Shown here piece after piece: positions 597-17,694 of a stretch of DNA of 46,875 nt (position 1 is its first letter; the number at the start of each line of letters is the position of its first letter). Source of the DNA: an uncultured Chryseobacterium sp. (GTDB lineage Bacteria; Bacteroidota; Bacteroidia; Flavobacteriales_F; PHOS-HE28); NCBI GenBank assembly GCA_964464935.1, contig CAYXKE010000003.1, positions 6,844-53,718 of the forward strand, given 5' to 3'. Both the position numbers and the translations under genes were made by a program. The notes beneath the pieces were generated by a model. It was not told where the DNA came from and made no database searches. It worked only from the letters and a program-made list of their open reading frames with translations.

Positions 597-1334
597 CTAA
601 CCGTGCACCGCTTCGCACATGGCGAAGATCAGGTCAGGGTCGTGCTCGAAGGCCGTGCCCACCACGAGCACATCGGCACCGGCGGTGCAGAGCGCCCGTG
701 CCTGTTGCGCATCGCGGATGCCACCACCCACGATGATCGGCAATTGCACCTGGGCACGCACGGCCGCGACCATCTCCGGCGAAACCGGGCGATCCGCGCC
801 GCTGCCGGTGTCCATGTAAATGGTGCGCAGGCCCAGCAGCTCGCCGGCCAATGCGGTGGCCGCAGCGATGCCCGGCTTGTCATGCGGGAGGGGCACTGTC
901 TGGCTCACGTAGCTCACCGTGGTGGCCTTGCCCCCGTCCACCAGCATGTAGCCCGTGGGGATCGCCTCGATGCCCAGGGCTTTCACCGTGGGCGCGGCAG
1001 TGACGTGGTGGCCGATGAGCAGCTCGGGGTTGCGGCCGCTGATCAGGGAGAGGAAGAGCACCGCATCGGCGTGGCGGCTCAGCTGGGCCGGGCTGCCGGG
1101 GAAGAGCACCACGGGGCGGTCGCTCCAGCGGCGCACCAGCTCCACGCACCGGTCGAAGGAGGTGGTGGTGAGCAGGCTGCCGCCCACGAGGATCAGGTCG
1201 GCCTTGGCCATGCACGCCTGCTGCACGGTGTGCTCCAAGCGGGCCTCGTCGGCCCCGAAGTCGGGGTCGATCAACACGGCCAGGAGCTTGCGGCCTTGGG
1301 CGCGGGCGGCTTCGAGCAGGGGGAGCACGGGCAT
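597..1334 (-). CDS. Geranylgeranylglyceryl/heptaprenylglyceryl phosphate synthase (GGGPS/PcrB family, group II-like)
   Basis: C-terminal 245 aa of the 597..2846 ORF, from ATG 1334 (MPVLPLLEA). Motifs [58 protein letters not shown]. Confidence 0.92.
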
Positions 1335-1339
1335 GGCTG

Positions 1340-1347
1340 CGAACTTA
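1340..1347 (-). promoter_or_regulatory. Bacteroidota sigmaA -7 element variant (TAAGTTCG) for GGGPS
   Basis: Near-match to TAnnTTTG, ending 5 nt before the ATG at 1334. Confidence 0.55.
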
Positions 1348-1390
1348 CTCCGTATGCGCCAGCCCGCACCGAAGCGGTGTTGCGCAGGCC

Positions 1391-1421
1391 TTTGTCCTTC
1401 GGGCCCAGCGCCGTACCTTTG
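1391..1421 (+). promoter_or_regulatory. Bacteroidota sigmaA promoter for ahcY (TTTG-N19-TACCTTTG)
   Basis: TTTG at 1391-1394 and TACCTTTG at 1414-1421 match the -33/-7 consensus and spacing. Confidence 0.8.
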
Positions 1422-1442
1422 CGCCCCCAAGTAAGAAACGTC

Positions 1443-2756
<1,314 letters not shown>

Positions 2757-2776
2757 TCCGGATCGACGACAAAAGC

Positions 2777-2804
2777 GAAGGGCCGCCCGAATGGACGGCC
2801 CTTC
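2777..2804. terminator. Probable bidirectional intrinsic terminator between convergent ahcY and the Rieske-like gene
   Basis: GAAGGGCCG-cCC-gaat-GGa-CGGCCCTTC stem-loop, with AAAA upstream and TTCGTT downstream. Confidence 0.7.
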
Positions 2805-2861
2805 TTCGTTCCCGGTCACGTGGTCCGTTGGCGGCTCATCGGCCAAGCGGCCATGCGTGCC

Positions 2862-3290
2862 CTAATTGTAGATCCGCAGGATCGTGCCGTTGAAGGACGT
2901 GTTGTACTGGCGCAGGTTGATCGCCGCCGGTCCTTCCACCACGCTGCCGTCCATGATCAGAAAGCGCGAGCCGCAGCACAGGGTGTCCATGGCCAGCACC
3001 TCGCTCTCGTCCACGAACACGCGGCACATCTCATTGGGCTGGTACGTGCAATGCCGGTCCAACGCCACGAACTCGGTGGGCGACTTGCGGTACACAATGA
3101 GGCCCATGGAGCCACCGGTCAGGTAGAGCCACCCGCCGGTTACGGCCAGGTCCTGGTAGGCCGGCAGGTCCACGTTGATCTCGAAGTACACCGATACCGG
3201 AGGCACCCCGCCCACTTCGTCGCGCTTGCAAGCACACAGGCCAAGCGCGATGGCCAGGGCCAGAAGGAGGGACTTGCCGAGGGATGCCAT
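2862..3290 (-). CDS. Rieske-like (2Fe-2S-fold) lipoprotein
   Basis: ATG 3290 (MASLGKSLLLALAIALGLCAC, lipobox-like). The segment FVALDRHCTY...C...CCGSRF...DGSVVEGPA..NLRQY follows the Rieske pattern. TACCTTTA at 3297-3304 upstream. Confidence 0.7.
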   Translation of the reverse strand: MASLGKSLLLALAIALGLCACKRDEVGGVPPVSVYFEINVDLPAYQDLAVTGGWLYLTGGSMGLIVYRKSPTEFVALDRHCTYQPNEMCRVFVDESEVLAMDTLCCGSRFLIMDGSVVEGPAAINLRQYNTSFNGTILRIYN

Positions 3291-3345
3291 GAAGTGTAAA
3301 GGTAGCATGGGCGGGAGGCCACGCCCGATGGCGTATCCTTGTGCC

Positions 3346-3642
3346 ATGCGTTCACTGTTGCGCACATCGCTCGTGCTGGCCTTGCTGCTGGCGGCACCCA
3401 TGATGGCCAGTGCCCAGGAGGGCATCAGTCGCAAGAAGCAGGAGAAGGTATTGGCCAGGAAGGAGAAGGCCGACGCCAAGGCCAAGGTGCGCAAGGAGAA
3501 GGAGGACCGCAAGCGGCACCTCTCGATCCAGGACAAGGAGACGCGCAAGCGCATCAAGCGCCACACGCGTCGGGCCGACCGGCACGGCACGGGCGTCCAC
3601 CGCGATGTCTTCCCCCGGAGCCTGTTCCAACGTCGGCGTTGA
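3346..3642 (+). CDS. Small, very basic secreted hypothetical protein (98 aa)
   Basis: ATG 3346, signal peptide MRSLLRTSLVLALLLAAPMMASA|QE, Lys/Arg-rich mature part. TATCCTTG at 3334-3341 ends 4 nt before the ATG. Confidence 0.7.
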   Translation: MRSLLRTSLVLALLLAAPMMASAQEGISRKKQEKVLARKEKADAKAKVRKEKEDRKRHLSIQDKETRKRIKRHTRRADRHGTGVHRDVFPRSLFQRRR

Positions 3643-3747
3643 TCGACCGCATCCTGGGGCACGAGGACCTTTCCTCTCTGTGCGCGGTGGTCCAAAAGGA
3701 TGTGAACGATATCTTGCCGCCGTGTTGTGGGTGCTCCTGTAACACAC

Positions 3748-3861
3748 CCCCCTCGTAGCGTTGCCATGTGGCTTGAAACCCTTGCTGGACGGGCTTTTCC
3801 CGCGATCGTGAAAAAATCCCAACGATCGGGGAAACTCCTATATTTACGCCCCCTCGTAGCG
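3748..3861. repeat. 13-bp direct repeat CCCCCTCGTAGCG (3748-3760, 3849-3861) flanking an imperfect inverted repeat (3796-3834)
   Basis: Read directly from the sequence. A third partial copy, CCCCTCGT, is at 3882-3889. Confidence 0.75.
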
Positions 3862-3891
3862 CACAACGCTGAACGTTAAATCCCCTCGTTG

Positions 3892-6800
3892 ATGGTGAGA
3901 AGGCTATTCTCCACGATCGCCCTGTTTTCTTTGGTGGTGGCTGTGAACGCCCAGACGGGCTCCGGCCAGCTCCGGGGCAAGATCACTGATAGCAAGACCG
4001 GTGAACCTCTGCCGTTCGTGAACGTGGTGGTCGAGCGGTCCGGCCAACAGGTCACCGGTAATGCCTCGGACTTCGACGGGGTGTACGACATCAAGCCGAT
4101 CGAACCGGGTACATATGACGTGGTGGTGACCTTCGTGGGTTACCAACCGCACAAGCGTACCGGTGTGGTGGTGAACGCCAACCGCATCACCTTCCTCGAT
4201 CTTCAGCTCAATCAAGGTATCGAGCTGAAGGAGTTCGAGGTGGTGCAGTACGCTGTGCCCCTGATCGATCGTGACGGTGGCGCTTCCGGGGGTACCATCA
4301 CGCGTGAGGACATCGCCAAGATGCCCGGTCGTAGCGCGGCATCCATCGCCACCACTGTGGCCGGTACCACCGATGCCGGTACGGGTGGCGGCATCAGTAT
4401 CCGCGGTGCGCGTGCGGAGAACACCTATTACTATATCGACGGGGTGAAAGTGCCGGCCGGTGCCGGTACGGGGCTGCCCAAGAGCGCCATTGAGGAAGTG
4501 CAGGTGATCACCGGTGGTGTGCCCGCCAACTACGGTGACGTGACCGGTGGTCTGATCAACATCACCACTCGTGGTCCCAGCCGGTCATTCTTCGGTGGGG
4601 TGGAATACCTTACATCTGGATTCAAGGTCGGCGACGACATTACTGACGTGGTGGGTCTGGATAAATACGGCTTCAACCAGCTCGAGGCGAGCCTCAGCGG
4701 TCCGCTGCTGTTCAAAAAGGACAGCGTGGGCAACAAGACCCGTCCGCTGATCGGCTTCTTCCTCTCCGGTCAGTACACCAACATCCTCGACCCCCGGCCG
4801 CTGCACGGTGGCGACATCCGTGTGCTGCCCAGCGTGCGCGAGCAGCTGCTGAGCAACCCGGCCATGCTGTTCCCCATCGGTCCGAACGACTGGACCCTGC
4901 AGTACAACAGCCAGCTGCTCCGCGCTTCCGATCTGGAGCGCATCCCCACCCGCCAGAACGCCGGTGAGGTGTCCTACCTGGCCTCCGGCAAGATCGACAT
5001 CACCACCACGCCCACCATCAACCTGAGCGTGGGTGGTTCGTTCGACCACAACAACCGCCAGAGCTACAACCGCGCCAACTCCTTGCTGAACGCGGAGAAC
5101 AACGTGCGGATCAAGGAGACCACCTGGCGTGGCTTCCTTCGCTTCACCCAGCGTTTCCAGAACAGCCCCGAGGAGCAGAAGACGGCCACCCTCAAGAACG
5201 CCTTCTACTCTCTGCAGTTGGACTACTCGCGCTACACGAGCAACGTGCAGGACTTCGAACACGGTGATCGGCTGTTCGACTATGGCTACGTGGGCAAGTT
5301 CGTGACCCACCGTGCGCCCCAGTTCGAACTGCGCAATGGTCGGTGGGAGCAGGTGGGTATGCAGGACACCCTGATCACCTTCACCCCGGGCTCCCAGAAC
5401 CCCGACCTGGCCTCGGTGACCAACTTCTACTTCAACTCCTTCCCCTACGAGCAGTTCCCGCTGGCCAACCTCTTCGGTGGTGTCGATCCGAGCTACGTGG
5501 GCTATTACCAGAACTTCCAGGAGACCTCCTCGCGCGGTGCGCTCTGGAACGGTGCCACGCCGCCCAGCCTGTACAGCCTGTGGAACAACGTCGGCCACCT
5601 CGACATCCCCAACGAGGCCGAGTACCGCAAGCGTCAGAACGACCAGCTCCGCTTCTCGGCCATGGGTAGCGCCGACATCGGCAACCACGCCGTGCAAGTG
5701 GGTGTGGAATACGAGCAGCTTGTGCAGCGCCGCTACGACCTGGCCCCCATCGGCCTGTGGACCCGTGCCCGCCAGCTGGCCAACTTCCACATCCAGGAAT
5801 GGCAGGACACCCTCGTGACCGACATCCTGCAGCTGCCCGGCAGCCCGCTGGACTTCTACATGTACTCGCGCAACAACGGTGGTGACCAACGCTACTTCGA
5901 CCGCAAGCTGCGCGAGGCCCTGGGCCTGGACCCCAACGGTCTGGACTTCGTCGATGTGGACGCTCTGGACCCCAGCGTGTTCTCGCTCGACATGTTCAGC
6001 CCCGACGAACTGGTGAACGACGGTAACTCGCTGGTGAACTTCGTGGGTTATGACCACCTCGGCAACCGCATCAGCGGCCGCCCCAGCTTCAACGACTTCT
6101 TCGACGCCCGCAACAGCGACGGCCAGTTCACCCGTGTCCAAGCCCCCTTCTCGCCGATCTACATGGCGGGTTACGTGATGGACAAGTTCGCCTTCGATGA
6201 CATCATCTTCAACGTGGGTGTGCGTGTGGACCGCTACGACGCGAACCAGAACGTGCTGAAGGACAAGTACCTCTGGCAGGATGCCTTCAAGGCCGGCGAC
6301 GCCGTGCCCGACCCCGTGATCGCCAGCCAGCTCGCGAACCGGCCGAGCAACATCGGCAGCGACTTCGTGGTGTACGTGAACAACCTGGAAGACCCGACCA
6401 GCATCAAGGGTTACCGCGATGGCGATACCTGGTACAGCGCTTCCGGTGTGGAGCTGGCCGACGGCTCGCCCCTGCAGGAAGGGGGTACCGTGCAGCCCTA
6501 CCTGGTGGAGCGCGGCAACGCTTCCAGCCTCTCGGGCTCCTTCCTGAGCAAGAGCGCCTTCACCGACTACACTCCCGCGGTGAACGTGATGCCCCGTATC
6601 GCCTTCTCGTTCCCGATCAGTGACGAGGCGGTGTTCTTCGCCCACTACGACGTGCTGACCCAGCGCCCCAACGCGGTGCAATCGCGCCTGGACCTGATGG
6701 GCTACGCCTACATCCACAACACGGGCGACATTCTGACCAACCCCGCGCTGAAGCCCACCAAGACGATCGACTACGAACTGGGCTTCCAGCAGGTGCTGTC

Positions 6801-7632
6801 GAAGACCTCCTCGCTGAAGATCTCGGCCTTCTACCGCGAACTGCGTGACCAGATCCAGATCCGCAACGTGTTCGATGCCTGGCCGCGCAGCTACCGTACG
6901 TACGACAACTTCGACTTCGGTACGGTGAAGGGCTTCACCACCACCTACGACCTGCGCCGCACGGGCAACATCTGGCTGCGTCTGGGCTACACCCTGCAGT
7001 TCGCCGATGGTACCGGTTCGGGTCCCACCTCGGGCATCAGCCTGGTGAACTCCGGCATGCCCAACCTGCGCACGATCGCTCCGCTGAACTTCGACCAGCG
7101 TCACCGCTTCCAGCTGACGATGGACTTCCGCTACGGCGGTGGCAAGGACTACAACGGTCCGGTGCTGTTCGACAAGCCGATCTTCCAGCGCATGGGTCTG
7201 AACGTGACCTCGATCCTGGGCAGCGGCACGCCGTACAGCCGTTCGCTGACCGTGTACAACGAAGGTGCCGAGACCGGCAACTACCGCTTGGATGGTACGC
7301 TCAACGGTTCACGCCTGCCCTGGCAGTTCACCACGGACCTGCAGCTTGACCGCGACATCCCGCTCAGCTTCGGCGGTGGTGAGGGCGAGAAGGCGAAGAG
7401 CGCCAACCTGAACATCTTCCTGCTGGTGACCAACGTGTTCAACACGGCCAACATCATCGACGTGTACCGCTACACGGGCTCGCCGGTGAACGACGGTTAC
7501 CTGGCCCAACTGCTGGACTTCTCGCAGCTGGACCCCACCTCCTACCGTGAGCTGTACACGGCTCGCGTGGACAACCCCTTGAATTTTGGCATGCCGCGGC
7601 AGATCCGTCTCGGTGTCCGGTTCGACTTCTGA
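3892..7632 (+). CDS. TonB-dependent receptor-like outer-membrane protein with N-terminal carboxypeptidase-regulatory-like domain
   Basis: Signal peptide (VNA|QTG), GKITDSKTGEPLPFVNV domain, plug motif ISIRGARAENTYYYIDGV...IEEVQVITGGVPANYGDVTGGLINITTR, GVRVDRYD strand, C-terminus PRQIRLGVRFDF. ATG 3892 (alternative TTG 3889). Confidence 0.88.
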   Translation: MVRRLFSTIALFSLVVAVNAQTGSGQLRGKITDSKTGEPLPFVNVVVERSGQQVTGNASDFDGVYDIKPIEPGTYDVVVTFVGYQPHKRTGVVVNANRITFLDLQLNQGIELKEFEVVQYAVPLIDRDGGASGGTITREDIAKMPGRSAASIATTVAGTTDAGTGGGISIRGARAENTYYYIDGVKVPAGAGTGLPKSAIEEVQVITGGVPANYGDVTGGLINITTRGPSRSFFGGVEYLTSGFKVGDDITDVVGLDKYGFNQLEASLSGPLLFKKDSVGNKTRPLIGFFLSGQYTNILDPRPLHGGDIRVLPSVREQLLSNPAMLFPIGPNDWTLQYNSQLLRASDLERIPTRQNAGEVSYLASGKIDITTTPTINLSVGGSFDHNNRQSYNRANSLLNAENNVRIKETTWRGFLRFTQRFQNSPEEQKTATLKNAFYSLQLDYSRYTSNVQDFEHGDRLFDYGYVGKFVTHRAPQFELRNGRWEQVGMQDTLITFTPGSQNPDLASVTNFYFNSFPYEQFPLANLFGGVDPSYVGYYQNFQETSSRGALWNGATPPSLYSLWNNVGHLDIPNEAEYRKRQNDQLRFSAMGSADIGNHAVQVGVEYEQLVQRRYDLAPIGLWTRARQLANFHIQEWQDTLVTDILQLPGSPLDFYMYSRNNGGDQRYFDRKLREALGLDPNGLDFVDVDALDPSVFSLDMFSPDELVNDGNSLVNFVGYDHLGNRISGRPSFNDFFDARNSDGQFTRVQAPFSPIYMAGYVMDKFAFDDIIFNVGVRVDRYDANQNVLKDKYLWQDAFKAGDAVPDPVIASQLANRPSNIGSDFVVYVNNLEDPTSIKGYRDGDTWYSASGVELADGSPLQEGGTVQPYLVERGNASSLSGSFLSKSAFTDYTPAVNVMPRIAFSFPISDEAVFFAHYDVLTQRPNAVQSRLDLMGYAYIHNTGDILTNPALKPTKTIDYELGFQQVLSKTSSLKISAFYRELRDQIQIRNVFDAWPRSYRTYDNFDFGTVKGFTTTYDLRRTGNIWLRLGYTLQFADGTGSGPTSGISLVNSGMPNLRTIAPLNFDQRHRFQLTMDFRYGGGKDYNGPVLFDKPIFQRMGLNVTSILGSGTPYSRSLTVYNEGAETGNYRLDGTLNGSRLPWQFTTDLQLDRDIPLSFGGGEGEKAKSANLNIFLLVTNVFNTANIIDVYRYTGSPVNDGYLAQLLDFSQLDPTSYRELYTARVDNPLNFGMPRQIRLGVRFDF

Positions 7633-10600
7633 TGAAAAATTACACGCAAACCATGAAAGGCTTTCAAAGCGCACTTCTGACCAGGACCTTCGCTCTGGGC
7701 CTCTTCTCGCTCTTGGTGGCGCATGCGTCGGGCCGTTCCCTGCCGACCCCGTCCAACAACGCGAACCCCGGTGCGGGTGCCGCGGGCATGGCGAAGGCGG
7801 CAGGCTGCGCGCCGGCCACGCAGATCCGCTTCCTGGAGTACAACAACGTGCGGGCCATCATCGAGAACGGTGGGAACAAATGGCAACGCCGGATCTCCCC
7901 GACCAACTCCGGTTATGAGGTGCCCAAGACGGATGATAACTCCGGCCCCAAGGCCATCTTCGCCGGCGGTCTCTGGATGGGTGGCATGTCCCCGGACAAC
8001 CAGCTGAAGATCGCCGCGGTGATGTTCCGGCAGGGGGGGCAGAACGACTTCTGGCCGGGCCCGCTCACCACCGGTGGCGATGCATCGGTCACTCCGGACG
8101 TGTGTGCCGCCTACGACAAGTTCTGGTATACCGAGCGCGTGATGGCCGAGACCCACGTGAAGTGGAAGAACTGTCAGGAGGACCCCGACTGCAACATGGA
8201 GGAGGAGTTCCCCAACGGCTACTCCATCCCGCAGGTGTTCTACGACTGGCCGGCCATGGGCAACACCAACGCGGGTCAGGCCCTGCATCTGGCACCTTTC
8301 GTGGACTGGGACGGTGACCTGGAGTACGATCCCTCGCAAGGTGACTACCCCGACTACGGTTTCAACACCAGCGTGGAGGAGTGCAAATCGAAGAACCGGG
8401 AGACCCCTGTGTCGCTTTTCGGTGACGCCAACTTTTTCTGGATCTTCAACGACAAGGGCAACAACCACACGGAGACCAATGGCCAGCCCATCGGTCTGGA
8501 GGTGCACGCCCAGGCCTTCGCCTTCAGCTCGAACAACGAGATCAACAACATGACCTTCTACAACTACGTGGTCATCAACCGGGGCACGCAGACCCTGTTG
8601 AACACGTACTTCGGTCACTATGTGGATCCCGACCTGGGCTGTGCGGATGATGACTTCGCGGGCTGCGACGTGCAGCGCGGTCTCGGCTTTGTGTACAACT
8701 GGGACGATGTGGACGCCAACTGCGGCAGCCAGATCGGTTACGGTGGTCCCAACCCGCCGCCGCCCGCCATCGGCATCGACTTCTTCGAAGGTCCTTACCA
8801 GGACTACGACGGGCTCGACAACCCCGGCCCGTCCGCCGGTCTGAGCTGCCAGGAGTACGTGGCGCAGAAGGGTATTCCCTATGATGGCCTCGGTATCGGC
8901 TATGGTGATGGGGTGGTGGACAACGAGCGCTTCGGTATGCGCGCGTACATCTACTTCAACCGGGAGAGCTCCAACAACAACATGACCGACCCCGCGTCGG
9001 CCACCCACTTCTACAACTATCTGCGCAGTATCTGGAAGGACAACCGCCCGCAGACCTACAGTGGTAGCGGCTACAGCACGGACCCCAACGCGGTGCGTGC
9101 CTACTACATGTTCCCCTGGGATACGGACCCCCTGGGTTGGGGTACCGGCTGCGTGCCGCAGCCCGACTGGCGCGAACTGGAGCAGACCCCGACCCAGCCT
9201 GACCGCCGCTTCTGCCAGAGCGCAGGCCCCTTCACCCTGGAACCCGGCGCCTACAACAACGTGACCGTGGGTGTGGTGTACGGCCGCGCCACCCAAGGCG
9301 GTGCCACCGCCAGCGTGGAGGTGATGCGTGTGGCCGACAACAAGGCCCAGGCCCTGTTCGACAACTGCTTCAAGATCCTCGATGGCCCGGATGCACCTGA
9401 TCTGACCATCAAGGAACTGGACCGCGAACTGATCGTGTTCATCACCAACCCCGCGGGCAGCAACAACGAAGGTGAGCGCTATGAGGAGCTCGATCCGGTG
9501 ATCCCGCCCGTGAACTCCAGCGGGGAGGAGAACGATCGCTACTACCGCTTCCAAGGCTACAAGCTGTACCAGCTTCGTGATGCCAACGTGAGCGTGAACG
9601 ATCTGGACGACATCAACGCGGCCCGCCTGATCTATCAGGGGGACATCAAGGACAACGTCGCGCAGATCATCAACTATCCGATGAGCGATGCCATGGGCAT
9701 CCCCGTCCCCACGGAAATGGTGAACGGTGCGAACGAAGGGATCACCCACGCGATCCGCATCACCGAGGACGCGTTCGCCCAAGGCGACAAGCGGCTGGTG
9801 AACTTCAAGACGTACCACTACATGTGCATCGCGTACGCCTACAACAACTACGAGGACTACAACATGAGCACGGGCACCGGCCAGGCGTTCCCCTACCTCG
9901 TGGGTCGTAAGGCGGCGTTCGGGTCCATCCGCTCCTACAGCGGCATTCCGCACAAGCCGGCCCCCAGCCAGGGAGGCACGGTGCTGAACAGCCAGTTCGG
10001 TGACAAGCTGCAGGTGACCCGCTACGAAGGCCAAGGCAACGGCGCCAATGTGCTGATGCTGGCCAAGGAGAGCGAGGACGCCATCATGAGCGGCCCGCCC
10101 TGGCGCAGCGACAAGCTGGTGTACGAGCGCGGTGCCGGCCCGGTGGACGTGCGGATCATCGACCCGCTGAACGTTCGTGCCGGTGACTTCGAGATCTGGA
10201 TGCTCGACTCCGTCACCCCCGCCACGCTGAACGACGCCTACTGGAAGCTCGTGCACCTGCAGACCGGTGATGAGATCTACAGCGATCGCACCATCGACAT
10301 GGAGTACGAGCAGTTGTTCCCGAAATGGGGCTTCTCGGTGCGGCTCGGCCAGCACTACTATGCTGCCGGCGTGGGCCCGCTGCAGACCACCTCGCCGATC
10401 GGTACGGGCATCATGCGCTTCGATGATCCTACCAAGGCCTGGCTCACCGGTATCCCTGACGGCGAAGGGGTGAACCCGCTGAACTGGATCCGTTCGGGCA
10501 CCCAGACCTTTACGGACGACGATGACGTGTACTCCGACAAGGTGGGTTACGACGATGACCAGGAGTACGAAGGGCTCCTCGGCGGTACGTGGGCGCCTTG

Positions 10601-11792
10601 GACCCTGGCCGGTGCGGCACCCTTCCAGCCGGTGAACTCGATCCAAGCGTTCAGCAACTCGCAGGGCTCCTCCAACATCCTGGCCTCGGCCCTCAACCTC
10701 ACGCCCAGCATCCAGCTGGTGATCACCAAGGACAAGTCCAAGTGGTCGCGCAGTGTGGTGTTCGAGAACGAGCATGTGGCCTCGCTGAACGAGGGCAACT
10801 CCTACAAACTGGGTCTGCGCGACGCACCCAGCGTGGACAAGGAAGGCCGCATGTCCGGCACGCCGGGATGCAACGAGGAGGAAGCCACCCTGGGCGGCAC
10901 CCAGCCGCGCGGTGCGGGCTGGTTCCCCGGTTACGCGATCGATCTGGAGACGGGTGAGCGTCTGAACATCGCTTTCAGCGAGAACAGCTTCTGGGGCGGT
11001 GGCATTGGCCGCGACATGCTCTGGAACCCGAGCTCCGAGCTCTTTAACCAAGGGTCCGGCCAGCCGGTGTTCGGTGGTGCCCACTGGATCTATGTGTTCC
11101 GCAACGACCGTCGGGTGCGCGGCGCGCTGACCCCCCCGCAGAACCCGGACCAGTGCGTGCCCGCCTACGACGAGTGCCGGTATATCTACAACAACATTTC
11201 GCCCACGGCGCCCACCGGTGGCACGAGCCAGATCTCGACCGCACGTCTGTTCCGTGGTGTGGCCTGGGTGGGTAGCGCCATGCTGGTGCCCGGCCGTGAG
11301 TTGCTGGAGACCGATGTGCGCATCGTCCTGAACGTGGCCAAGCCCTACGAGCGCTACGTGGACTACCCGGGTTCGCTGAGCCCGATCCAGCCCGAGCGTA
11401 ACGAGGGTCGCCCCCTGTACGCCTTCAGCACGTCCGGTCTCACCGAGAACAACGTGCACGAGGTGGCCGTGGAGGCACTGGACATGATCAACGTCGTGCC
11501 CAACCCGTACTACGCCTTCAGCGGCTACGAGACCTCGCGTCTGGACAACCGGGTGAAGTTCATCAACCTGCCCAAGACGTGCACGATCTCGATCTACAAC
11601 ACCAGTGGTACGCTGGTCCGGAAATTCCGCAAGGACAACGACCTCACGTACCTGGATTGGGACCTGAAGAACCTGCATAACATCCCCATCGCCGGCGGTG
11701 TGTACATCTGCCACATCGACGTGCCCGGCGTGGGCGAGAAAGTGCTCAAGTGGTTCGGTGCCCTGCGTCCGGTTGACATGCAGAACCTGTGA
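7632..11792 (+). CDS. Large secreted protein with T9SS-like C-terminal sorting domain, function unknown
   Basis: ATG overlaps the TBDR stop (TGATG); alternative ATG 7653. Signal peptide, acidic Asn/Gly/Cys-rich body. C-terminus INVVPNPY...FINLP...ISIYNTSGTLVRK...WDLKN...GGVYICHID...KVLKW resembles a CTD/FlgD-Ig-like sorting domain. Confidence 0.8.
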   Translation: MKNYTQTMKGFQSALLTRTFALGLFSLLVAHASGRSLPTPSNNANPGAGAAGMAKAAGCAPATQIRFLEYNNVRAIIENGGNKWQRRISPTNSGYEVPKTDDNSGPKAIFAGGLWMGGMSPDNQLKIAAVMFRQGGQNDFWPGPLTTGGDASVTPDVCAAYDKFWYTERVMAETHVKWKNCQEDPDCNMEEEFPNGYSIPQVFYDWPAMGNTNAGQALHLAPFVDWDGDLEYDPSQGDYPDYGFNTSVEECKSKNRETPVSLFGDANFFWIFNDKGNNHTETNGQPIGLEVHAQAFAFSSNNEINNMTFYNYVVINRGTQTLLNTYFGHYVDPDLGCADDDFAGCDVQRGLGFVYNWDDVDANCGSQIGYGGPNPPPPAIGIDFFEGPYQDYDGLDNPGPSAGLSCQEYVAQKGIPYDGLGIGYGDGVVDNERFGMRAYIYFNRESSNNNMTDPASATHFYNYLRSIWKDNRPQTYSGSGYSTDPNAVRAYYMFPWDTDPLGWGTGCVPQPDWRELEQTPTQPDRRFCQSAGPFTLEPGAYNNVTVGVVYGRATQGGATASVEVMRVADNKAQALFDNCFKILDGPDAPDLTIKELDRELIVFITNPAGSNNEGERYEELDPVIPPVNSSGEENDRYYRFQGYKLYQLRDANVSVNDLDDINAARLIYQGDIKDNVAQIINYPMSDAMGIPVPTEMVNGANEGITHAIRITEDAFAQGDKRLVNFKTYHYMCIAYAYNNYEDYNMSTGTGQAFPYLVGRKAAFGSIRSYSGIPHKPAPSQGGTVLNSQFGDKLQVTRYEGQGNGANVLMLAKESEDAIMSGPPWRSDKLVYERGAGPVDVRIIDPLNVRAGDFEIWMLDSVTPATLNDAYWKLVHLQTGDEIYSDRTIDMEYEQLFPKWGFSVRLGQHYYAAGVGPLQTTSPIGTGIMRFDDPTKAWLTGIPDGEGVNPLNWIRSGTQTFTDDDDVYSDKVGYDDDQEYEGLLGGTWAPWTLAGAAPFQPVNSIQAFSNSQGSSNILASALNLTPSIQLVITKDKSKWSRSVVFENEHVASLNEGNSYKLGLRDAPSVDKEGRMSGTPGCNEEEATLGGTQPRGAGWFPGYAIDLETGERLNIAFSENSFWGGGIGRDMLWNPSSELFNQGSGQPVFGGAHWIYVFRNDRRVRGALTPPQNPDQCVPAYDECRYIYNNISPTAPTGGTSQISTARLFRGVAWVGSAMLVPGRELLETDVRIVLNVAKPYERYVDYPGSLSPIQPERNEGRPLYAFSTSGLTENNVHEVAVEALDMINVVPNPYYAFSGYETSRLDNRVKFINLPKTCTISIYNTSGTLVRKFRKDNDLTYLDWDLKNLHNIPIAGGVYICHIDVPGVGEKVLKWFGALRPVDMQNL

Positions 11793-11825
11793 TCACGGCG
11801 AACTGACCCATAGAACATTCGGCTG

Positions 11826-12875
11826 ATGCGATCGATGAAACGAGCTGTTGTGGTGGCCGCCCTGGTCGGGCTGGCCGGAGCGCCCTGCTGGGCGGGAAAC
11901 CCCGAACGGGCGGGCGCGGCCGGTGCCACCCAATTGCTGATCAACCCTTGGGCACGGTCCTCGGGTTGGGGTCTGGCGAACTCCGCGAGCGTTCGCGGTG
12001 CCGAGGCCATGTTCGGCAACGTGGCCGGCCTGGCCCATGTGCCCCGCACCGAGGTGCTCTTCAGCAATACCCAGTGGCTGTCCGGTGCGGGCGTGCAGAT
12101 CAATAGTGTGGGCCTGGGCCAGAAGCTCGGCGCCTCCGGTGTGCTGGGCTTGTCCGCCACGGTGATGGGCTTCGGTGACTTGGAGGTGACCACCTACGAC
12201 AACCCCGAAGGGGGCCGTGGGACCTTCTCGCCCTCGCTGGCCAACATCGGGCTGGCCTACTCGAAGAGCTTCTCCAACAGCATCCACGGGGGCATCCTCG
12301 TGCGGGTGATCAGCGAGTCGATCGCCAACGTGCGCACCAGCGGCATCTGCTTCGACGCGGGTATCCAGTACGTCACCGGTCCGCTGGACAACGTCCACTT
12401 CGGCATCGCGCTGAAGAACGTGGGCCCCGCCATGCAGTTCGCCGGCGATGGTCTCTCGGTGCAGGGCTTCCTGATCCAAGGCAGCGACCAGCTCACCCTG
12501 GAGCAGCGCTCTGACCGCTTCGAGATCCCCTCGCTGCTGAACATCGGCTTCGCCTACGACTGGCACCTGGCCGAGATGCACCGCCTCACTTTGGCCGGTA
12601 CGTTCATCTCCAACTCCTTCACCAAGGACCAAGGGGTGTTCGGCGTGGAGTACGCCTTCCGCAAGATGTTCCACCTGCGTGGTGGCTACATGTACGAGGC
12701 CGGCATCACCGACGACGCCGAGCGTACCACGGTCTTCACCGGCCCATCCGCCGGTCTGAGCGTGGACTTCCCCTTCGGAAAGGAGAAGCAATCCGCACTG
12801 GCCATCGACTATGGCTACCGCAGCACCAACCCGTTCTCGGGCGTGCACAGCCTCGGCTTGCGGATCACGCTCTGA
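11826..12875 (+). CDS. PorV/PorQ-family (FadL-like) outer-membrane beta-barrel
   Basis: Signal peptide then GAAGATQLLINPWARSSGWG...A...EAMFGNVAGLA, matching the PorV-like N-terminal motif. Amphipathic strands (FDAGIQY, FGIALKNVG, GVEY, IDYGY) and C-terminus HSLGLRITL. Start may be ATG 11835. Confidence 0.8.
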   Translation: MRSMKRAVVVAALVGLAGAPCWAGNPERAGAAGATQLLINPWARSSGWGLANSASVRGAEAMFGNVAGLAHVPRTEVLFSNTQWLSGAGVQINSVGLGQKLGASGVLGLSATVMGFGDLEVTTYDNPEGGRGTFSPSLANIGLAYSKSFSNSIHGGILVRVISESIANVRTSGICFDAGIQYVTGPLDNVHFGIALKNVGPAMQFAGDGLSVQGFLIQGSDQLTLEQRSDRFEIPSLLNIGFAYDWHLAEMHRLTLAGTFISNSFTKDQGVFGVEYAFRKMFHLRGGYMYEAGITDDAERTTVFTGPSAGLSVDFPFGKEKQSALAIDYGYRSTNPFSGVHSLGLRITL

Positions 12876-12890
12876 TCACATATCTTCAAC

Positions 12891-12928
12891 GCACGGAAGA
12901 GGGTCCCTCGCGGGATCCTCTTCCGTGC
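12891..12928 (+). terminator. Strong 17-bp hairpin after the PorV-like gene (terminator or greA leader)
   Basis: GCACGGAAGAGGGTCCC-tcgc-GGGATCCTCTTCCGTGC followed by TGTTG (weak U tract). Confidence 0.65.
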
Positions 12929-13003
12929 TGTTGCCCTACCCCGAACCGACCAATAAAACCCATTCGACGCCCTGTTCCGAGCGTCGTCGACAATGAATAG
13001 ACC

Positions 13004-13477
13004 ATGAGCACACCGGCCTACTTCACCGAGGAAGGACTGCGCAAACTGCAGGAAGAGCTGCACCGTCTGCGCACGGTCGAACGCCCCCATCTCAGCCAGC
13101 AGATCGCGGACGCCCGGGACAAGGGCGACCTGAGCGAGAACGCCGAGTACCATGCCGCCAAGGAGGAGCAGGGCCTGCTCGAGGCCCGCATTGCCAAGCT
13201 GGAGGAGACGCTGGCCAGCGCCCGCGTGGTGGATTCGTCCCAATTCGATGACAGCCGGGTCTACATCCACTCCCGTGTGGTGGTGCGCAACCCCGACAAT
13301 GGCATGCAGCGCGAGTTCACGCTGGTGGCCGAGAGCGAGGCTGACATCAAGTCGGGCAAGATCAGTGTCACATCCCCCATCGGTAAGGGACTGCTGGGCA
13401 AGTCCCGTGGCGAGCTGGCCGAGATCATGACCCCGGCCGGAACGACCCGGTTCGAGGTGGTGGACATCAGCCGCTGA
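13004..13477 (+). CDS. greA: Transcription elongation factor GreA
   Basis: Motifs ARDKGDLSENAEYHAAKEEQ and ISVTSPIGKGLLGK. Confidence 0.97.
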   Translation: MSTPAYFTEEGLRKLQEELHRLRTVERPHLSQQIADARDKGDLSENAEYHAAKEEQGLLEARIAKLEETLASARVVDSSQFDDSRVYIHSRVVVRNPDNGMQREFTLVAESEADIKSGKISVTSPIGKGLLGKSRGELAEIMTPAGTTRFEVVDISR

Positions 13478-13480
13478 TCC

Positions 13481-13870
13481 ATGGCGAGCATCTTCACTCG
13501 GATCGTGCGTGGGGAGATCCCCTGCCACAGGGTGGCCGAGGATGATCGGTTCCTGGCCTTCCTGGACATCCAACCGCTGCGGCAGGGCCACACCCTGGTG
13601 ATCCCCAAATTGGAGGTGGACCGCTTCTTCGACCTGCCCGACGAACTCTTGAGCGGGATCATGCCCTTCGCCCGCGATGTGGCGAAGCGCATCCAGGCCG
13701 TGGTGCCCTGCGACCGTGTGGGCGTGGCCGTGGTGGGGCTGGAGGTGCCCCATGCGCATGTGCATCTGATCCCCCTCGATCGGGTGAGCGACATGGACTT
13801 CGCCCGGCCGAAGCTGCAGATGACGCCGGAGGAAATGGCGGCCCTGGCGGAACAGATCCGTCAGGCCTGA
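13481..13870 (+). CDS. HIT family hydrolase
   Basis: SIFTRIVRGEIP, AFLDIQP..GHTLVIPK and histidine triad VPHAHVHLIP. Confidence 0.95.
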   Translation: MASIFTRIVRGEIPCHRVAEDDRFLAFLDIQPLRQGHTLVIPKLEVDRFFDLPDELLSGIMPFARDVAKRIQAVVPCDRVGVAVVGLEVPHAHVHLIPLDRVSDMDFARPKLQMTPEEMAALAEQIRQA

Positions 13871-13882
13871 CACCAAGGGAGA

Positions 13883-14479
13883 TCAGACGAGCCGGTCCGG
13901 ATTGTTCCGGATGAAGGCCTCCCAGCCGTTGCCGCCCCCGCCACTGCTGCGGCGCGGGGCCGGACGGGGCCGCTGGTGCCCGCTGAAGTGATGGCACACG
14001 GCCACGGCCACCGCGTCCGTGGCATCGGTGCTGTCCGGCAGGCCGGGCAGTCCGAGGATGCTCAGCAGCATCGCGGCCACCTGTTCCTTGCTGGCCTTCC
14101 CGTGCCCGGTGATGCTCTGCTTGATGCGCGATGGGGCATACTCGGTCACGCTCATGTCGAACTGCAGGGCGGCCGCGATGGCCACGCCTTGGGCCCGGCC
14201 CAGCTTCAGCATGCTCTGCACGTTCTTGCCGAAGAACTGCGCCTCGATCGCCAGCTCGTCCGGATGGTGCCGTTCAATGATGGCCGTGGTCTCGCGGAAG
14301 ATGGCCCGCAGTTTCCGGGTGTGGTCCTCACCGATGGCGAACCGGACGGCCCCGGCCTCCAGCAGGCGTACGCCCCCCTGCGCCACGTACAGCACGCCGA
14401 ACCCCATCACCGTGGTGCCCGGGTCGATGCCCAGGATGATGCGTTCCCCGGGAGGGCGGCTACTTTTGAGCGTGCCCAC
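13883..14479 (-). CDS. ruvC: Holliday junction endodeoxyribonuclease RuvC
   Basis: ILGIDPGT, LAIEAQFF, LGRAQG, EYAPSRIKQSITGHGKASKEQV, DATDAVAVA. Start uncertain (GTG 14479 or ATG 14512). Confidence 0.93.
   Translation of the reverse strand: MGTLKSSRPPGERIILGIDPGTTVMGFGVLYVAQGGVRLLEAGAVRFAIGEDHTRKLRAIFRETTAIIERHHPDELAIEAQFFGKNVQSMLKLGRAQGVAIAAALQFDMSVTEYAPSRIKQSITGHGKASKEQVAAMLLSILGLPGLPDSTDATDAVAVAVCHHFSGHQRPRPAPRRSSGGGGNGWEAFIRNNPDRLV
14461..14468 (+). promoter_or_regulatory. sigmaA -7 element TACTTTTG for the flippase-like/GT2/permease operon
   Basis: Exact TAnnTTTG, ending 3 nt before an in-frame GTG at 14472. Confidence 0.6.
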
Positions 14480-15455
14480 CCCCCGATCAGTATCGGTGTT
14501 CTCCGGTCCCATCTGGCTGCGGCTCCTTCGCTGGGGCGTGCTGGTGGCGGCTGCACTGTTCCTGTACACGCACCTCGATGCGGAGCAAGGTACGGCAGCC
14601 ATGACCGCTCTTGGGAGCCTTGGAGGGGATGCCAGGGCCTGGGTGGTCCTGGCCCTTGTGCCCGTGAATTGGGGCCTGGAGTCGGCCAAATGGCGACTGC
14701 TGATGGAGCCGGTGCAGCCCTTGGGGCGCTGGCGGTCTTTCGTCGCCACGCTCGCCGGCACCGGCATCGCCCTGGTCACCCCGAACCGTACCGGTGAGTT
14801 CCTGGGCCGTGTGCTCTACCTGGACCCGGAGCACCGGGTGGCGGGCGGCTTCGCCACGGCATTGGGAAGTATCGCGCAATGCGTGGTGACGCTGGTGGCC
14901 GGTGCGGTGGGCTTGGTGGTGCTCGCCGCACGCAGTGCGCCCTTGCCGTGGTCGTCCGGCGGTGCGACCCATGTGTTGGCCGCGCTGGCCCTGGGGGTGG
15001 CGGGTTCGGGCCTGGTGTGCTATTTCCACCCGGGGTGGGTGCGGAGGGCCTTGCTGAGGGTGCCCATACTGCGTCGAACGGGATCGGCCACGGAGGTGCT
15101 CGAACGGTTCCGCGGGGACCAGCTTGCCTTGGTGTTGGGCATCAGTGCCCTGCGATACGTGGTCTTCACGGGACAGTTCGTGCTGCTGTGCCTGGTGTTG
15201 AACACGGGGCTGGGGGCGGTGGATGCTGCGCTGGCGGTGGCCGTGGTGTATCTCATCACCACGCTCGTACCCACCATGTTCATTTCCGAGCTGGGCGTGC
15301 GGGGCAGTGTGGCTTTGGGGGTGCTGGTGCCGCTGGGCAGCGCCCCGGCCGCAGCGGTGGCGGCTTCGGGCCTCCTGTGGTCGTGCAATGTGGTCCTGCC
15401 GGCGGTGGTGGGGAGCGTCCTGCTGCTCACCGTGCGCATCCGTACCCGGTCATGA
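14472..15455 (+). CDS. Lysylphosphatidylglycerol-synthase-TM / flippase-like multipass membrane protein
   Basis: Many hydrophobic helices with NWGLESAKWRLL, TPNRTGEFLGRVL and ELGVRG motifs typical of this family. Start inferred at GTG 14472. Confidence 0.75.
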   Translation: MPTPRSVSVFSGPIWLRLLRWGVLVAAALFLYTHLDAEQGTAAMTALGSLGGDARAWVVLALVPVNWGLESAKWRLLMEPVQPLGRWRSFVATLAGTGIALVTPNRTGEFLGRVLYLDPEHRVAGGFATALGSIAQCVVTLVAGAVGLVVLAARSAPLPWSSGGATHVLAALALGVAGSGLVCYFHPGWVRRALLRVPILRRTGSATEVLERFRGDQLALVLGISALRYVVFTGQFVLLCLVLNTGLGAVDAALAVAVVYLITTLVPTMFISELGVRGSVALGVLVPLGSAPAAAVAASGLLWSCNVVLPAVVGSVLLLTVRIRTRS

Positions 15456-16570
15456 GCGTGGTGGTCGTGCTGCTCATGTTGCTCGCCGTTCGGCATGGCA
15501 CCATCCTGTTGCATTGGTGCCGCCTGATCCGCGCATACCGCCCACCCGCCGCCGGCTCTGCGGCGCCCCTGTCGGTGGTCGTGCCGGTGCGCGATGGGGC
15601 GGGGACCCTACCCGATCTGCTCGGTGATCTGCGGGCGCAACGGGGCGCGGACTTCGAGGTGGTGGTGGTGGACGACCACAGTGCCGATGGCACGGCCCAA
15701 CTGGTGCGGGAACATGCGCGCGAATGGCCGGCCCTGCGGTTGGTCTCCGCCACCGCCGACGGGCACGGCAAGAAATCGGCCATCATGCGCGGAGTGGCCG
15801 TGGCGGCTAACGACCACCTGCTGTTGCTTGACGCGGACGTGCGCTGCGGACCGGACCATGTGCGGCGGGTGGGCGCGTGCCTGAGGGCCACCCACGCTGA
15901 TCTGCTGATCCTGCCGGTACAGGTGGCGGGCGGACATGGGATGGTGGGCTGGTTGCAGCGACGGGAAGGCGCGGCGCTCCAGGGCGCCGCATGGGGCAGT
16001 GCGCTCAGCGGTACGCCCGTGCTGGCGAACGGGGCGGACCTGGCCTTCCGAAAGGGGGCCTTCGTGGAGGTGGGCGGCTACTCGGGCGATACGGTCTCCA
16101 GTGGCGATGATGTGTTCCTGCTGCAACGCATGAGGCAGCGCGGCATGCGGATCTCGGTGATGCCCGAGGCGGCCGTGACCGTACGGACGGCCCCAGAAGG
16201 GAACTGGCTTGCCGCAGCAACGCAACGTCTTCGCTGGGCCGGCAAGATGTGGCGGTCCGGTGGCCAGGTCGTCGGGGTGGGGGCGATGGCCGTACTGCTG
16301 CCGTGGGCGCTGGCAGTGGTCACCGTATGGGTGGCCCTGCAGCATGATGGGGCAGCGCTTCCCGCCGTGGGACTGGCCTTGGCCTGGATGGCCTGGGCAG
16401 TGCCCGTGCTGCAGCTCACGGCCGCCGTCGATCGGGTGTTCGGCAGCTCCGGCCGCATGCGCCTCACGGACCTGCTGGCATTGGCGCTTTTCATGCTCTA
16501 TGCCCCGGTGATCGTCATCCTCTCGATATTCGTGCGGCCGCGCTGGAAAGGCCGCCGTGTGCGCATATGA
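15452..16570 (+). CDS. Membrane-anchored GT2 glycosyltransferase
   Basis: ATGA overlap with the upstream stop. SVVVPVRD, VVDDHSAD, GKKSA, LLDAD, NGADLAF, SGDD, QRLRW, plus C-terminal TM helices. Confidence 0.9.
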   Translation: MSVVVVLLMLLAVRHGTILLHWCRLIRAYRPPAAGSAAPLSVVVPVRDGAGTLPDLLGDLRAQRGADFEVVVVDDHSADGTAQLVREHAREWPALRLVSATADGHGKKSAIMRGVAVAANDHLLLLDADVRCGPDHVRRVGACLRATHADLLILPVQVAGGHGMVGWLQRREGAALQGAAWGSALSGTPVLANGADLAFRKGAFVEVGGYSGDTVSSGDDVFLLQRMRQRGMRISVMPEAAVTVRTAPEGNWLAAATQRLRWAGKMWRSGGQVVGVGAMAVLLPWALAVVTVWVALQHDGAALPAVGLALAWMAWAVPVLQLTAAVDRVFGSSGRMRLTDLLALALFMLYAPVIVILSIFVRPRWKGRRVRI

Positions 16571-17694
16571 ACGAGGCATCGGACCAAAGCCTGGCCCGGC
16601 TGGCGTGGGAGCGCCTCCGACGCGACCGGACCGCCGTGGCGGGAATGATCGTGATCGCCCTGGCCGTGTGCGTGGCCCTTTTCGGGCGGTGGGTTCGCCC
16701 GGACAGTTCGCCGTGGGCCAATGAACAGGTGCCGGGCATCCGCGATCGGGCGCCCGGGGCCGAGGCCCGCCTGCTGCACCTGCCCACTGCGGCCGGTGGG
16801 GGCGTCCTGCCGGTGCATGCGTTGCAGGTGGAGGGGAACGAGCTCGTGGTGGTGGAGGACAATGGCCACAATGACCTGGTCCCCGGCCGGACGCACCGCA
16901 TCGCTCTGCACCTGTTCCCGGACCATGCCCAAGGGGCATCGGAGCCATGGGCGTCGCATCTGGAGCGCCGCCGTTTCGTGCTGGGCACGGACAACCTGGG
17001 GCGCGATGTATTGAGCCGGCTCATGGCCGGCACGGCCATCTCGCTCGGCGTGGGCCTCGTGGCGGTGCTCATCTCGCTGGTCATCGGCATTCCGTTGGGG
17101 GCTTTGGCGGGCTATTTCCGGGCCGAGGCGCCCGGTTCCCGCCTGCTGGGCCGTCGCTTCCGCTGGCCGGTGGATGATGCCGTGATGTGGCTCGTGAACG
17201 TGATCTGGAGCATCCCCACGCTGCTGTTGGTGATCGCCATCACGTTGGCGCTCGGCAAGGGGTTCGTGCAGGTGTTCGTGGCCGTGGGCCTCACCATGTG
17301 GGTGGAGGTGGCGCGCCTGGTGCGTGGCGAGGTGGTGCGCGTGCGGGCGCTCGAGTACGTGGAAGCGGCGCGCGCGCTGGGCTACGGTCATGCGCGGATC
17401 ATCTGGCGCCACGTGCTGCCCAATGTCATGGGCCCGGTGATCGTGGTGAGCGCGGCCAACTTCGCCTCGGCCATCCTCATGGAGGCGGGCCTGAGCTTCC
17501 TGGGCATCGGTGCCCAGCCGCCCATGGTGAGCTGGGGGGGCATGATCCGCAGCTACTATCCCTACATCACCACGGACCTGTGGCACCTGGCACTGCTGCC
17601 GGGCGTGTGCATCATGGTGCTCACGCTGGCCTTCATGCTGGTGGGCAACGGCCTGCGCGATGCGCTCGATACCCGGAGCATCACCGTGCGTTGA
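16567..17694 (+). CDS. Peptide/nickel ABC transporter permease (DppC/OppC-like)
   Basis: AWERLRRD N-terminus, LGTDNLGRDVLSRL, EAA loop EYVEAARALG, RHVLPN, EAGLSFLGIG, GNGLRDALD. Confidence 0.9.
   Translation: MNEASDQSLARLAWERLRRDRTAVAGMIVIALAVCVALFGRWVRPDSSPWANEQVPGIRDRAPGAEARLLHLPTAAGGGVLPVHALQVEGNELVVVEDNGHNDLVPGRTHRIALHLFPDHAQGASEPWASHLERRRFVLGTDNLGRDVLSRLMAGTAISLGVGLVAVLISLVIGIPLGALAGYFRAEAPGSRLLGRRFRWPVDDAVMWLVNVIWSIPTLLLVIAITLALGKGFVQVFVAVGLTMWVEVARLVRGEVVRVRALEYVEAARALGYGHARIIWRHVLPNVMGPVIVVSAANFASAILMEAGLSFLGIGAQPPMVSWGGMIRSYYPYITTDLWHLALLPGVCIMVLTLAFMLVGNGLRDALDTRSITVR

Follow-up and report, generated by a model that had tools for sequence, protein, structure and literature searches.

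A three-gene outer-membrane locus

The stretch of DNA considered here, hereafter the window, comprises 46,875 nucleotides (~65% G+C) from an uncultured Chryseobacterium sp. (assembly GCA_964464935.1, contig CAYXKE010000003.1, positions 6,844 to 53,718 of the forward strand). The system in question is a trio of co-oriented genes on its plus strand, encoding a TonB-dependent transporter (gene 1), a very large secreted protein of an unnamed family (gene 2), and an outer-membrane barrel of the PorV/PorQ family (gene 3), that we tentatively propose act together at the cell surface. According to the list of open reading frames (ORFs), gene 1 starts at the ATG at 3892, in an ORF that itself opens at a TTG at 3889, its stop codon and the start of gene 2 overlap by one base (the A of TGATG, 7630-7634), and 33 nucleotides separate gene 2 from gene 3. 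The first-pass annotation, made from the sequence alone, had described the shared orientation, the TGATG coupling, a gap of about 30-40 nucleotides, and a closing 17-bp hairpin, all with correct coordinates, and family scans of the unit agreed with it that no SusD, carbohydrate-active enzyme, or regulator lies within the trio. The three genes and their parts are as follows.

3892-7632, plus strand: gene 1, TonB-dependent transporter of 1246 residues with a signal peptide
3967-4209, plus strand: gene 1, CarboxypepD_reg-like N-terminal extension (Pfam PF13620, 1.6e-15)
4231-4251, plus strand: gene 1, TonB-box-like EFEVVQY (residues 114-120), between the N-terminal extension and the plug
4291-4551, plus strand: gene 1, plug (PF07715, 4.1e-10, 40.6 bits against a cut-off of 23.9)
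7632-11792, plus strand: gene 2, secreted protein of 1386 residues (~150 kDa), unnamed family
Residues 1-33 of gene 2, plus strand: signal peptide, an N-terminal hydrophobic Sec signal read from the translation
7806-9377, plus strand: gene 2, galactose-mutarotase-like beta-supersandwich with large insertions (residues ~59-582), from a fold search
9384-9956, plus strand: gene 2, Fn3-like domain (residues 585-775; VIA Z 8-10)
9984-11456, plus strand: gene 2, central domain with no fold match (residues ~785-1275, ~490 residues)
10911-11093, plus strand: gene 2, near-invariant motif GWFPGYAID.ETGERLN.AF.E.S...D..WNP...GG.H (residues 1094-1154) in the central domain
11478-11789, plus strand: gene 2, C-terminal domain (residues 1283-1386, 104 residues), with the fold of a type IX secretion system (T9SS) tail and closest to the PorZ and PorU tails
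11826-12875, plus strand: gene 3, PorV/PorQ-family outer-membrane barrel of 349 residues

An additional PorV-family barrel and its predicted cargo

Gene 3 scores well above the cut-off of the PorV family model (NF033709, 139.3 bits, cut-off 90), and its profile matches the solved PorV 6h3i (E 1.1e-15), but it falls far under the equivalog cut-offs for PorQ (64.9 bits, 220), PorV (48.7 bits, 250), and PorV2 (34.7 bits, 325). The genome encodes its own PorV (454.6 bits), PorQ (345.2 bits), and PorV2 (488.8 bits) as separate genes, each above its cut-off, and gene 3 is thus an extra barrel. In a tree built on 26 proteins of the PorV family, drawn from six genomes and with five weak rows left out (G025_e, G012_e, G025_f, G000_p5, and G038_e), the gene 3 orthologues form a clade of their own (SH-aLRT 99), apart from PorV (99), PorQ, and PorV2 (100). 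Hence, to the question raised by the first-pass annotation of whether gene 3 clusters with housekeeping PorV, the tree and the sub-cut-off scores both answer that it does not, nor does it cluster with PorQ. Further, the genome encodes SprA, an adjacent PorU-PorV pair, PorZ (428.5 bits, away from the trio), PorQ, and an adjacent PorU2-PorV2 pair, and SprA was present in all five of the carrier genomes checked.

Gene 2 has the general features of a T9SS cargo, specifically a Sec signal, a C-terminal beta-sandwich of the T9SS C-terminal domain (CTD) fold, and T9SS genes in the same genome. The solved chain closest to its tail in the VIA comparison was PorZ (5m11; Z 10.5, root-mean-square deviation [rmsd] 2.4, 90 residues aligned, 23% identity), followed by PorU (6za2; Z 9.2), with the cleaved type A tail of mirolase behind (Z 7.8); the tail also aligns with the CTDs of RemZ and NucA, and Foldseek again returned PorZ (E 2.3e-4). 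Likewise, PorZ was the top NCBIfam match of the tail in all five gene 2 family members searched (E 3.4e-7 to 8.5e-4), although the PorZ model NF052228 covers the tail only (positions ~653-757) and reaches just 18-29 bits against a cut-off of 260. The type A models, applied to the tail alone, remained under their cut-offs (TIGR04183, 21.0 bits against 23; PF18962, 16.6 against 27), four homologues gave type A scores of 17.7, 16.5, none, and 14.7, and no type B tail family was listed for gene 2 at E ≤ 1. The description of gene 2 as CTD-bearing therefore stands as regards the fold, while the tail lies below the type A cut-off and is PorZ/PorU-like instead.

The tail is also the best conserved region of gene 2, with 61% mean identity to 66 homologues, versus 35-47% elsewhere in the protein. 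In PMC10947112, PorU and PorZ are described as keeping their tails uncleaved, unlike other cargo, and PorQ as anchoring PorZ, which it probably collects from the translocon. The combination of a PorZ/PorU-like character with the highest conservation favors permanent anchoring over shuttling. A comparison of paralogues bears on the same point. Short gene 2 paralogues (557-679 residues; loci L149, L150, L151, and L152, about 5630-7730, minus strand) combine the same supersandwich N-domain with a canonical type A tail in all four cases (TIGR04183, 24-50 bits, cut-off 23), share no conserved neighbor with one another, and have no private barrel (n = 4), and none was seen with this query in the window's own genome, which is 90.6% complete. 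By comparison, eight stand-alone full-length paralogues retain the special tail, at 56-70% identity to that of the window, and each of five further genomes has one gene 3-type barrel, even where two long gene 2 copies are present. The special tail, rather than the gene 2 body, thus goes with the private barrel.

A complex model of gene 3 (residues 23-349) with the gene 2 tail (residues 1272-1386), built on our own alignments with three controls, predicts that the tail docks on the barrel, with a score of 0.89 (runs 0.90, 0.89, and 0.89) against 0.00 for the best control. At least 90% of contacts recur between runs, and the partner has a predicted local distance difference test (pLDDT) score of at least 80; of solved complexes, 58 of 80 attained this score mark, as did two of 110 mismatched pairs, counts that are only rough here since our own alignments were used. 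This prediction supplies the model of the CTD with this paralogue that the first-pass annotation had asked for beside one with housekeeping PorV. As for its proposal that the PorV paralogue exports or anchors gene 2, an interface is predicted, and the well-conserved PorZ/PorU-like tail favors the anchoring part over shuttling.

The same evidence bears on an alternative that we regard as unlikely, in which gene 3 does no more than carry gene 2 away from the SprA translocon, the tail is cleaved, and gene 2 is released or linked to lipopolysaccharide as an extracellular enzyme of new fold, with gene 1 taking up the products without any stable complex. Such a course would fit the likeness of gene 3 to PorV, a known shuttle, the tail score that lies barely below the type A cut-off (21 versus 23 bits), and a set of near-invariant polar residues (R1110, E1117, S1119, D1128, and H1151) that could form an active site in the domain without a fold match. 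However, a cleaved signal is unlikely to be the most conserved part of a 1386-residue protein, and the best matches of the tail, by structure and by sequence, are two tails reported as uncleaved. Further, ordinary type A cargo, the short paralogues included, needs no private barrel, and neither sequence nor fold searches recognized a catalytic family in gene 2.

Several observations on barrels and tails stand beside these results. Two full-length gene 2 copies with a single gene 3-type barrel occur at G401:C15:30212-37387, in G126 (contigs C169 and C192), and in G138 (contigs C13 and C31), and in one such case, the second copy lies in tandem, just past gene 3. The PorU2-PorV2 pair of the window's genome (G000:C16; locus L148, 1259-7494, minus strand) consists of a 370-residue PorV2 (NF052325, 488.8 bits) directly upstream of a 1708-residue PorU2 (NF052324, 578.6 bits) with a PorU/PorZ-like tail, such that one genome holds three adjacent pairs of a tail-bearing protein and a PorV-family barrel. 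A different module, from another family (L145, G038:C1:2684000-2699000, at 710-12787), starts with three CTD-type secreted proteins, of which one is ExeM/NucH nuclease-like, two are above the type A cut-off, and one, of 702 residues, has no family match and a tail matched by the gene 2 tail. It continues with a lipoprotein, a conventional TonB receptor of 941 residues, and, with its start overlapping the receptor's stop, a 334-residue PorV-family barrel of a further, distinct clade ("c"); an NHL-like lipoprotein comes last. Two other genomes have the "c" barrel with the NHL-like neighbor but without the receptor.

The transporter and the body of gene 2

Gene 1 is, by its domain matches, a TonB-dependent transporter that lies outside the SusC/RagA type as defined by NCBIfam (TIGR04056 unmatched at E ≤ 0.01), and its putative 22-strand barrel is assigned by orthology. 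Behind the extension and the plug lies a barrel region of ~1000 residues that ends in ...RFDF, and PF00593 scored above its cut-off in five of eight orthologue barrel regions (28-47 bits against 27). The EFEVVQY motif, kept as EVEVV.Y across 41 orthologues, is a candidate TonB box akin to the SusC-type one. Searched as a profile, the 41 orthologues pick out the plugs of Cir, PirA, and PfeA (E 4.5e-13 to 1.5e-6) and the N-terminal domain of the SusC homologue 9hfj, the SusC likeness being confined to that extension; with the single sequence, a carboxypeptidase-D domain was the sole match in the PDB. Separately, the idea that gene 1 is a private export channel for gene 2 was set aside on general grounds, as a plugged barrel of this kind is too narrow for a folded 150-kDa protein.

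Gene 2 belongs to a very large family that is all but nameless. The whole protein had no Pfam or NCBIfam match at E ≤ 0.01, its profile found only the PorZ tail among PDB sequences (E 0.077), and its nearest ESM Atlas clusters were unnamed relatives, with no usable match to residues 780-1280 among named clusters. There are at least 5475 similar proteins, and 6725 clusters at 50% identity match at E ≤ 0.001 (1571 at E ≤ 1e-30); where the sources name these homologues, it is as T9SS C-terminal target or type A sorting domain proteins of Flavobacteriales metagenome-assembled genomes (MAGs).

AlphaFold2 models on alignments of 67 rows reached a pLDDT of 86.7 and a predicted template modeling (pTM) score of 0.71 for residues 36-1200 and 88.5 and 0.85 for residues 585-1386. 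The best VIA matches of the N-domain (both Z 18.4; rmsd 3.8 and 3.2 over 250 and 254 residues) came from a GH94-type module and from dextran dextrinase, in both cases the N-terminal domain, and next in line were the N-domains of GH15, GH65, and GH116, mutarotase-like proteins, and the periplasmic domain of YidC. The N-domain also carries D-rich motifs at residues 332-361. The matches of the GH15, GH65, GH94, and GH116 types span the beta-supersandwich only (model residues 13-547), and the model behind that part is mostly beta strand; sequence searches listed no hydrolase family for gene 2. Foldseek against the PDB gave only weak matches to the supersandwich and the tail, and residues ~785-1275 had no VIA match in lists that were filled by the N-domain, the Fn3-like domain, and the tail, such that this central domain was barely probed.

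Distribution, synteny, and shared divergence

The trio is adjacent, in the same order and on the same strand, in related genomes, as the first-pass annotation had suggested checking. Matches at E ≤ 1e-20 were found for gene 2 and gene 3 in 38 each of 41 related genomes and for gene 1 in 34, and gene 3 had a single strong orthologue (E ≤ 1e-71) in 36 of the 41, the next match being at 2.9e-19. In 16 genomes of other families, the complete adjacent trio was found in eight, with gaps of at most 54 nucleotides in the eight loci read; it was cut by contig ends in four (G026, G027, G029, and G034) and missing from four (G030, G035, G036, and G039, the last of 0.5 Mb). More broadly, at least 597 stretches of species-representative genomes encode a gene 2 relative, and the 80 listed are, without exception, MAGs or uncultured records (Flavobacteriales, Crocinitomicaceae, Cryomorphaceae, Fluviicola, Taishania, and Bacteroidales). 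Where the listed loci had enough flank on both sides (n = 55), 45 held the trio, two held gene 1 and gene 2 only, and eight held gene 2 alone. The family is plentiful among uncultured Flavobacteriales in metagenomes from compost, manure, soil, and sediment, and an even draw of Bacteroidota had the long form of gene 2 in 16 of 401 genomes, clustered in few families (8/8, 3/3, 1/1, 1/1, and 2/21), while the largest families sampled had none (0/87 and 0/28).

The surroundings of the trio are conserved as well. Among the window and 14 loci from 11 families, 14 of 15 have greA and a HIT gene after gene 3, and ruvC (12), an LPG_synthase-like gene (12), a GT2 gene (11), and a Rieske-like ORF (10) are also frequent. 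This conserved housekeeping block marks the trio as a vertically inherited core trait, as opposed to a mobile island of the kind formed by polysaccharide utilization loci (PULs). The order across 597-17694 of the window (ahcY, the Rieske-like ORF, the trio, greA, HIT, ruvC, the LPG_synthase_TM-like gene, GT2, and the oppC-like gene) is kept in up to 11 families of the class, and synteny over such a range is unusual for Bacteroidia.

Such a setting invites the reading that the three genes are merely co-inherited, perhaps as one transcript, with a transporter that works independently of the gene 2-gene 3 pair. The synteny of unrelated housekeeping genes across families fits with this, as do the two of 55 loci with gene 1 and gene 2 but not gene 3 and the eight with gene 2 alone. 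We nevertheless consider it the least probable of the explanations weighed here, given the one-base stop/start overlap in the window, the short gaps in the other-family loci, and the absence, among the 41 genomes searched, of any full-length gene 1 orthologue away from a gene 2 orthologue. Further, the trio genes diverge more congruently with one another than with their flanks: across 38 loci, their distance matrices correlate at r 0.90-0.96, versus 0.73-0.81 with greA and HIT, and the partial correlations among them, with greA and HIT controlled, are 0.78-0.90. The phylogenetic congruence that the first-pass annotation had named as a check is thus apparent, but it is only suggestive, as kinship among the loci and the shortness of the control genes limit its weight.

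A second explanation that draws on the same block, and which we judge improbable, is that the trio has a housekeeping role specific to its lineage, within the T9SS, its attachment machinery, or the surface-glycan machinery, as a third pair of the PorZ-PorQ kind in which gene 2 binds a surface glycolipid or polysaccharide and gene 1 is a scaffold or conduit instead of a nutrient importer. The vertically inherited setting, the conserved promoter-like leader described below together with the absence of a regulator, the PorZ-like tail, and the glycan-binding-type fold of the N-domain would all suit such a role, and the PorU2-PorV2 pair illustrates that PorV-family barrels do pair with machinery proteins. 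However, the plug, TonB-box-like motif, and N-terminal extension of gene 1 are hallmarks of energized import. The module is not a general T9SS part, since it occurs in 16 of 401 genomes while the T9SS is far wider, and gene 2 has no similarity to PorZ beyond the tail.

Flanking sequence and RNA-library contigs

Outside the trio, the window carries the following features.

2862-3866, minus strand: Rieske-like ORF, divergent from gene 1
3838-3861, plus strand: promoter-like or leader block CTATATTTACGCCCCCTCGTAGCG, 31-54 nucleotides upstream of the gene 1 ATG
12887-12933, plus strand: terminator-like hairpin (inner 17-bp stem at 12891-12928, 4-nucleotide loop)
13004-13477: greA, downstream of gene 3
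13481-13870: HIT gene, downstream of greA

In an alignment of the 330 nucleotides upstream of gene 1 from the window and 12 orthologous loci, the CTATATTTACGCCCCCTCGTAGCG block and GAACGTAAAACC...GTTGATG form the sole well-conserved stretch. Within it, TATATTTA resembles what we take to be the Bacteroidota -7 box, and the block as a whole looks like the promoter and leader of an operon. The sequence CCCCCTCGTAGCG occurs twice upstream of gene 1 (3747-3760 and 3848-3861, 101 nucleotides apart), and the proximal copy alone is kept in relatives. The hairpin is far more stable than its shuffled counterparts (-38.6 kcal/mol against -17.3 +/- 2.5 in 200 shuffles; z -8.5, with 0 of 200 as stable), and no U-tract follows it. 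A sigma-70 promoter and terminator scan did no better than on shuffled sequence, and an Rfam scan of the window found neither a riboswitch nor another RNA family.

Upstream, the flank consists of a PcrB-family gene, ahcY, and the small Rieske-like ORF, and beyond the HIT gene lie ruvC (minus strand), the LPG_synthase_TM-like gene, the GT2 glycosyltransferase, and the oppC-like permease. Other very long ORFs of the window are found at 25375-29958 (plus strand, 1527 residues), 42404-45733 (plus strand, 1109 residues), and 30773-33409 (minus strand, 878 residues).

All three genes have contigs lying on them from metatranscriptomes of compost and manure (four runs, two studies). Three runs have contigs that bridge the junction of gene 1 and gene 2 (X17 record 3, X19 record 18, and X20 record 25), and one run has a contig across that of gene 2 and gene 3 (X17 record 5); parts that no RNA contig reaches (3000-3383 and a number of bins in X18-X20) are uninformative. 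A 357-nucleotide RNA-library contig at 3523-3879 ends 12 nucleotides before the gene 1 ATG; it may stem from the divergent Rieske-like ORF, a longer leader, or DNA carry-over.

A surface subunit delivered by type IX secretion?

We propose, with a probability of roughly 45%, that gene 2 is exported by the T9SS, is kept docked on gene 3 by its uncleaved tail, and serves as a capture or processing subunit for the gene 1 transporter. Specifically, after export through the genome's own T9SS, the tail would stay on and dock in the outward-facing side of its dedicated barrel, gene 3, in the manner of PorZ with PorQ and of PorU with PorV, and the 150-kDa protein would thereby be fixed at the cell surface beside the co-translated transporter. 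There, its carbohydrate-binding-type N-domain and conserved central domain could capture a large substrate for import through gene 1, and perhaps also process it; a glycan is the most likely candidate. Gene 2 would thus do the job of SusD, BtuG, or other surface lipoproteins, but by way of the T9SS in place of lipoprotein export.

Several points weigh against this proposal. First, the retention of the gene 2 tail is argued by analogy, and the complex score may reflect likeness instead of specificity, given that solved complexes of PorV with a tail exist (8gl8 and 8glk); as the controls were ones other than housekeeping PorV or PorQ, the score is silent on specificity. Second, the link between gene 1 and gene 2 is drawn from adjacency, the one-base overlap, and congruent divergence, which are possible for any co-inherited neighbors, and the equal synteny of the surrounding block makes synteny weak evidence of interaction. 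The RNA-library contigs show neither strand nor a single transcript, and such libraries may hold DNA. Third, the barrel region of the window's own gene 1 had no PF00593 match at E ≤ 1. Finally, as regards the substrate, the supersandwich fold is also purely structural in many enzymes and in YidC, which makes "glycan-binding" a weak label, and the flanks (greA, HIT, ruvC, and ahcY) hint at neither a substrate nor catabolism, with no regulator or riboswitch found.

Each half of the proposed arrangement has a precedent. In the attachment complex of the Porphyromonas gingivalis T9SS, PorZ and PorU are likewise T9SS-exported surface proteins held on barrels of the PorV/PorQ family, their tails are the closest to that of gene 2, and PorU-PorV and PorU2-PorV2 are adjacent pairs in this genome, too. 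Unlike these pairs, gene 3 belongs to a separate clade and scores too low for the PorV, PorQ, and PorV2 equivalogs, the likeness of gene 2 to PorZ and PorU stops at the tail, and the trio is narrowly distributed (16/401 genomes). Further, the attachment complex has no TonB-dependent transporter, whereas the gene 2-gene 3 pair shares an operon with one. In SusC-SusD, RagA-RagB, and BtuB-BtuG, a surface lipoprotein captures substrate for its TonB-dependent transporter. The trio resembles these systems in that a transporter with an N-terminal extension and plug is encoded beside a large surface-exposed partner, presumed to be the substrate catcher. It differs in that gene 2 is neither a lipoprotein nor SusD- or BtuG-like, having instead a Sec signal, a T9SS tail, and its own anchoring barrel; specifically with regard to SusC-SusD and RagA-RagB, gene 1 lies outside TIGR04056, and the unit is without PUL enzymes or a regulator.

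Two other systems share part of this logic. SprB-SprF, with its type B CTD, follows the same rule of one cargo and one barrel, in that a single T9SS cargo depends for its secretion or anchoring on a matching outer-membrane barrel encoded with it (PMC9143113), but its barrel is of the PorP/SprF family, where gene 3 is of the PorV/PorQ family, and its tail is of another type. In the Bacteroidota beta-barrel assembly machinery (BAM), the 14-stranded FadL-like barrel of BamG presents extracellular loops as a platform for the surface protein BamH (PMC12578637), and the likeness ends with that platform, as BamG is of the FadL/Toluene_X family, BamH is a lipoprotein, and neither a T9SS tail nor a TonB transporter is involved. 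The identification of gene 3 as BamG was rejected on account of that family and lipoprotein partner.

A search of full-text literature, outside of supplements, where proteomic mentions may be found, returned no paper on the trio, on a PorV-family barrel dedicated to TonB-linked cargo, or on the gene 2 family, which is consistent with the first-pass view of the system as undescribed. It is quite possible, although we would hold it somewhat short of an even chance, that the trio represents a third way to give a TonB-dependent transporter a surface subunit, one that is not a lipoprotein as SusD and BtuG are, that it is a core inherited trait of uncultured Flavobacteriales and Bacteroidales families, and that the central domain of gene 2 is a new ligand-binding or catalytic fold. 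The conserved tail and its private barrel offer a testable specificity code for T9SS anchoring. If the proposal is correct, it would connect two well-studied Bacteroidota systems that have so far been treated apart, namely uptake by TonB-dependent transporters with partners at the surface and the T9SS with its barrel-anchored components. PorV-family barrels would then serve more generally, outside the attachment complex as well, to dock proteins at the surface, and a very large unnamed protein family would gain a function.

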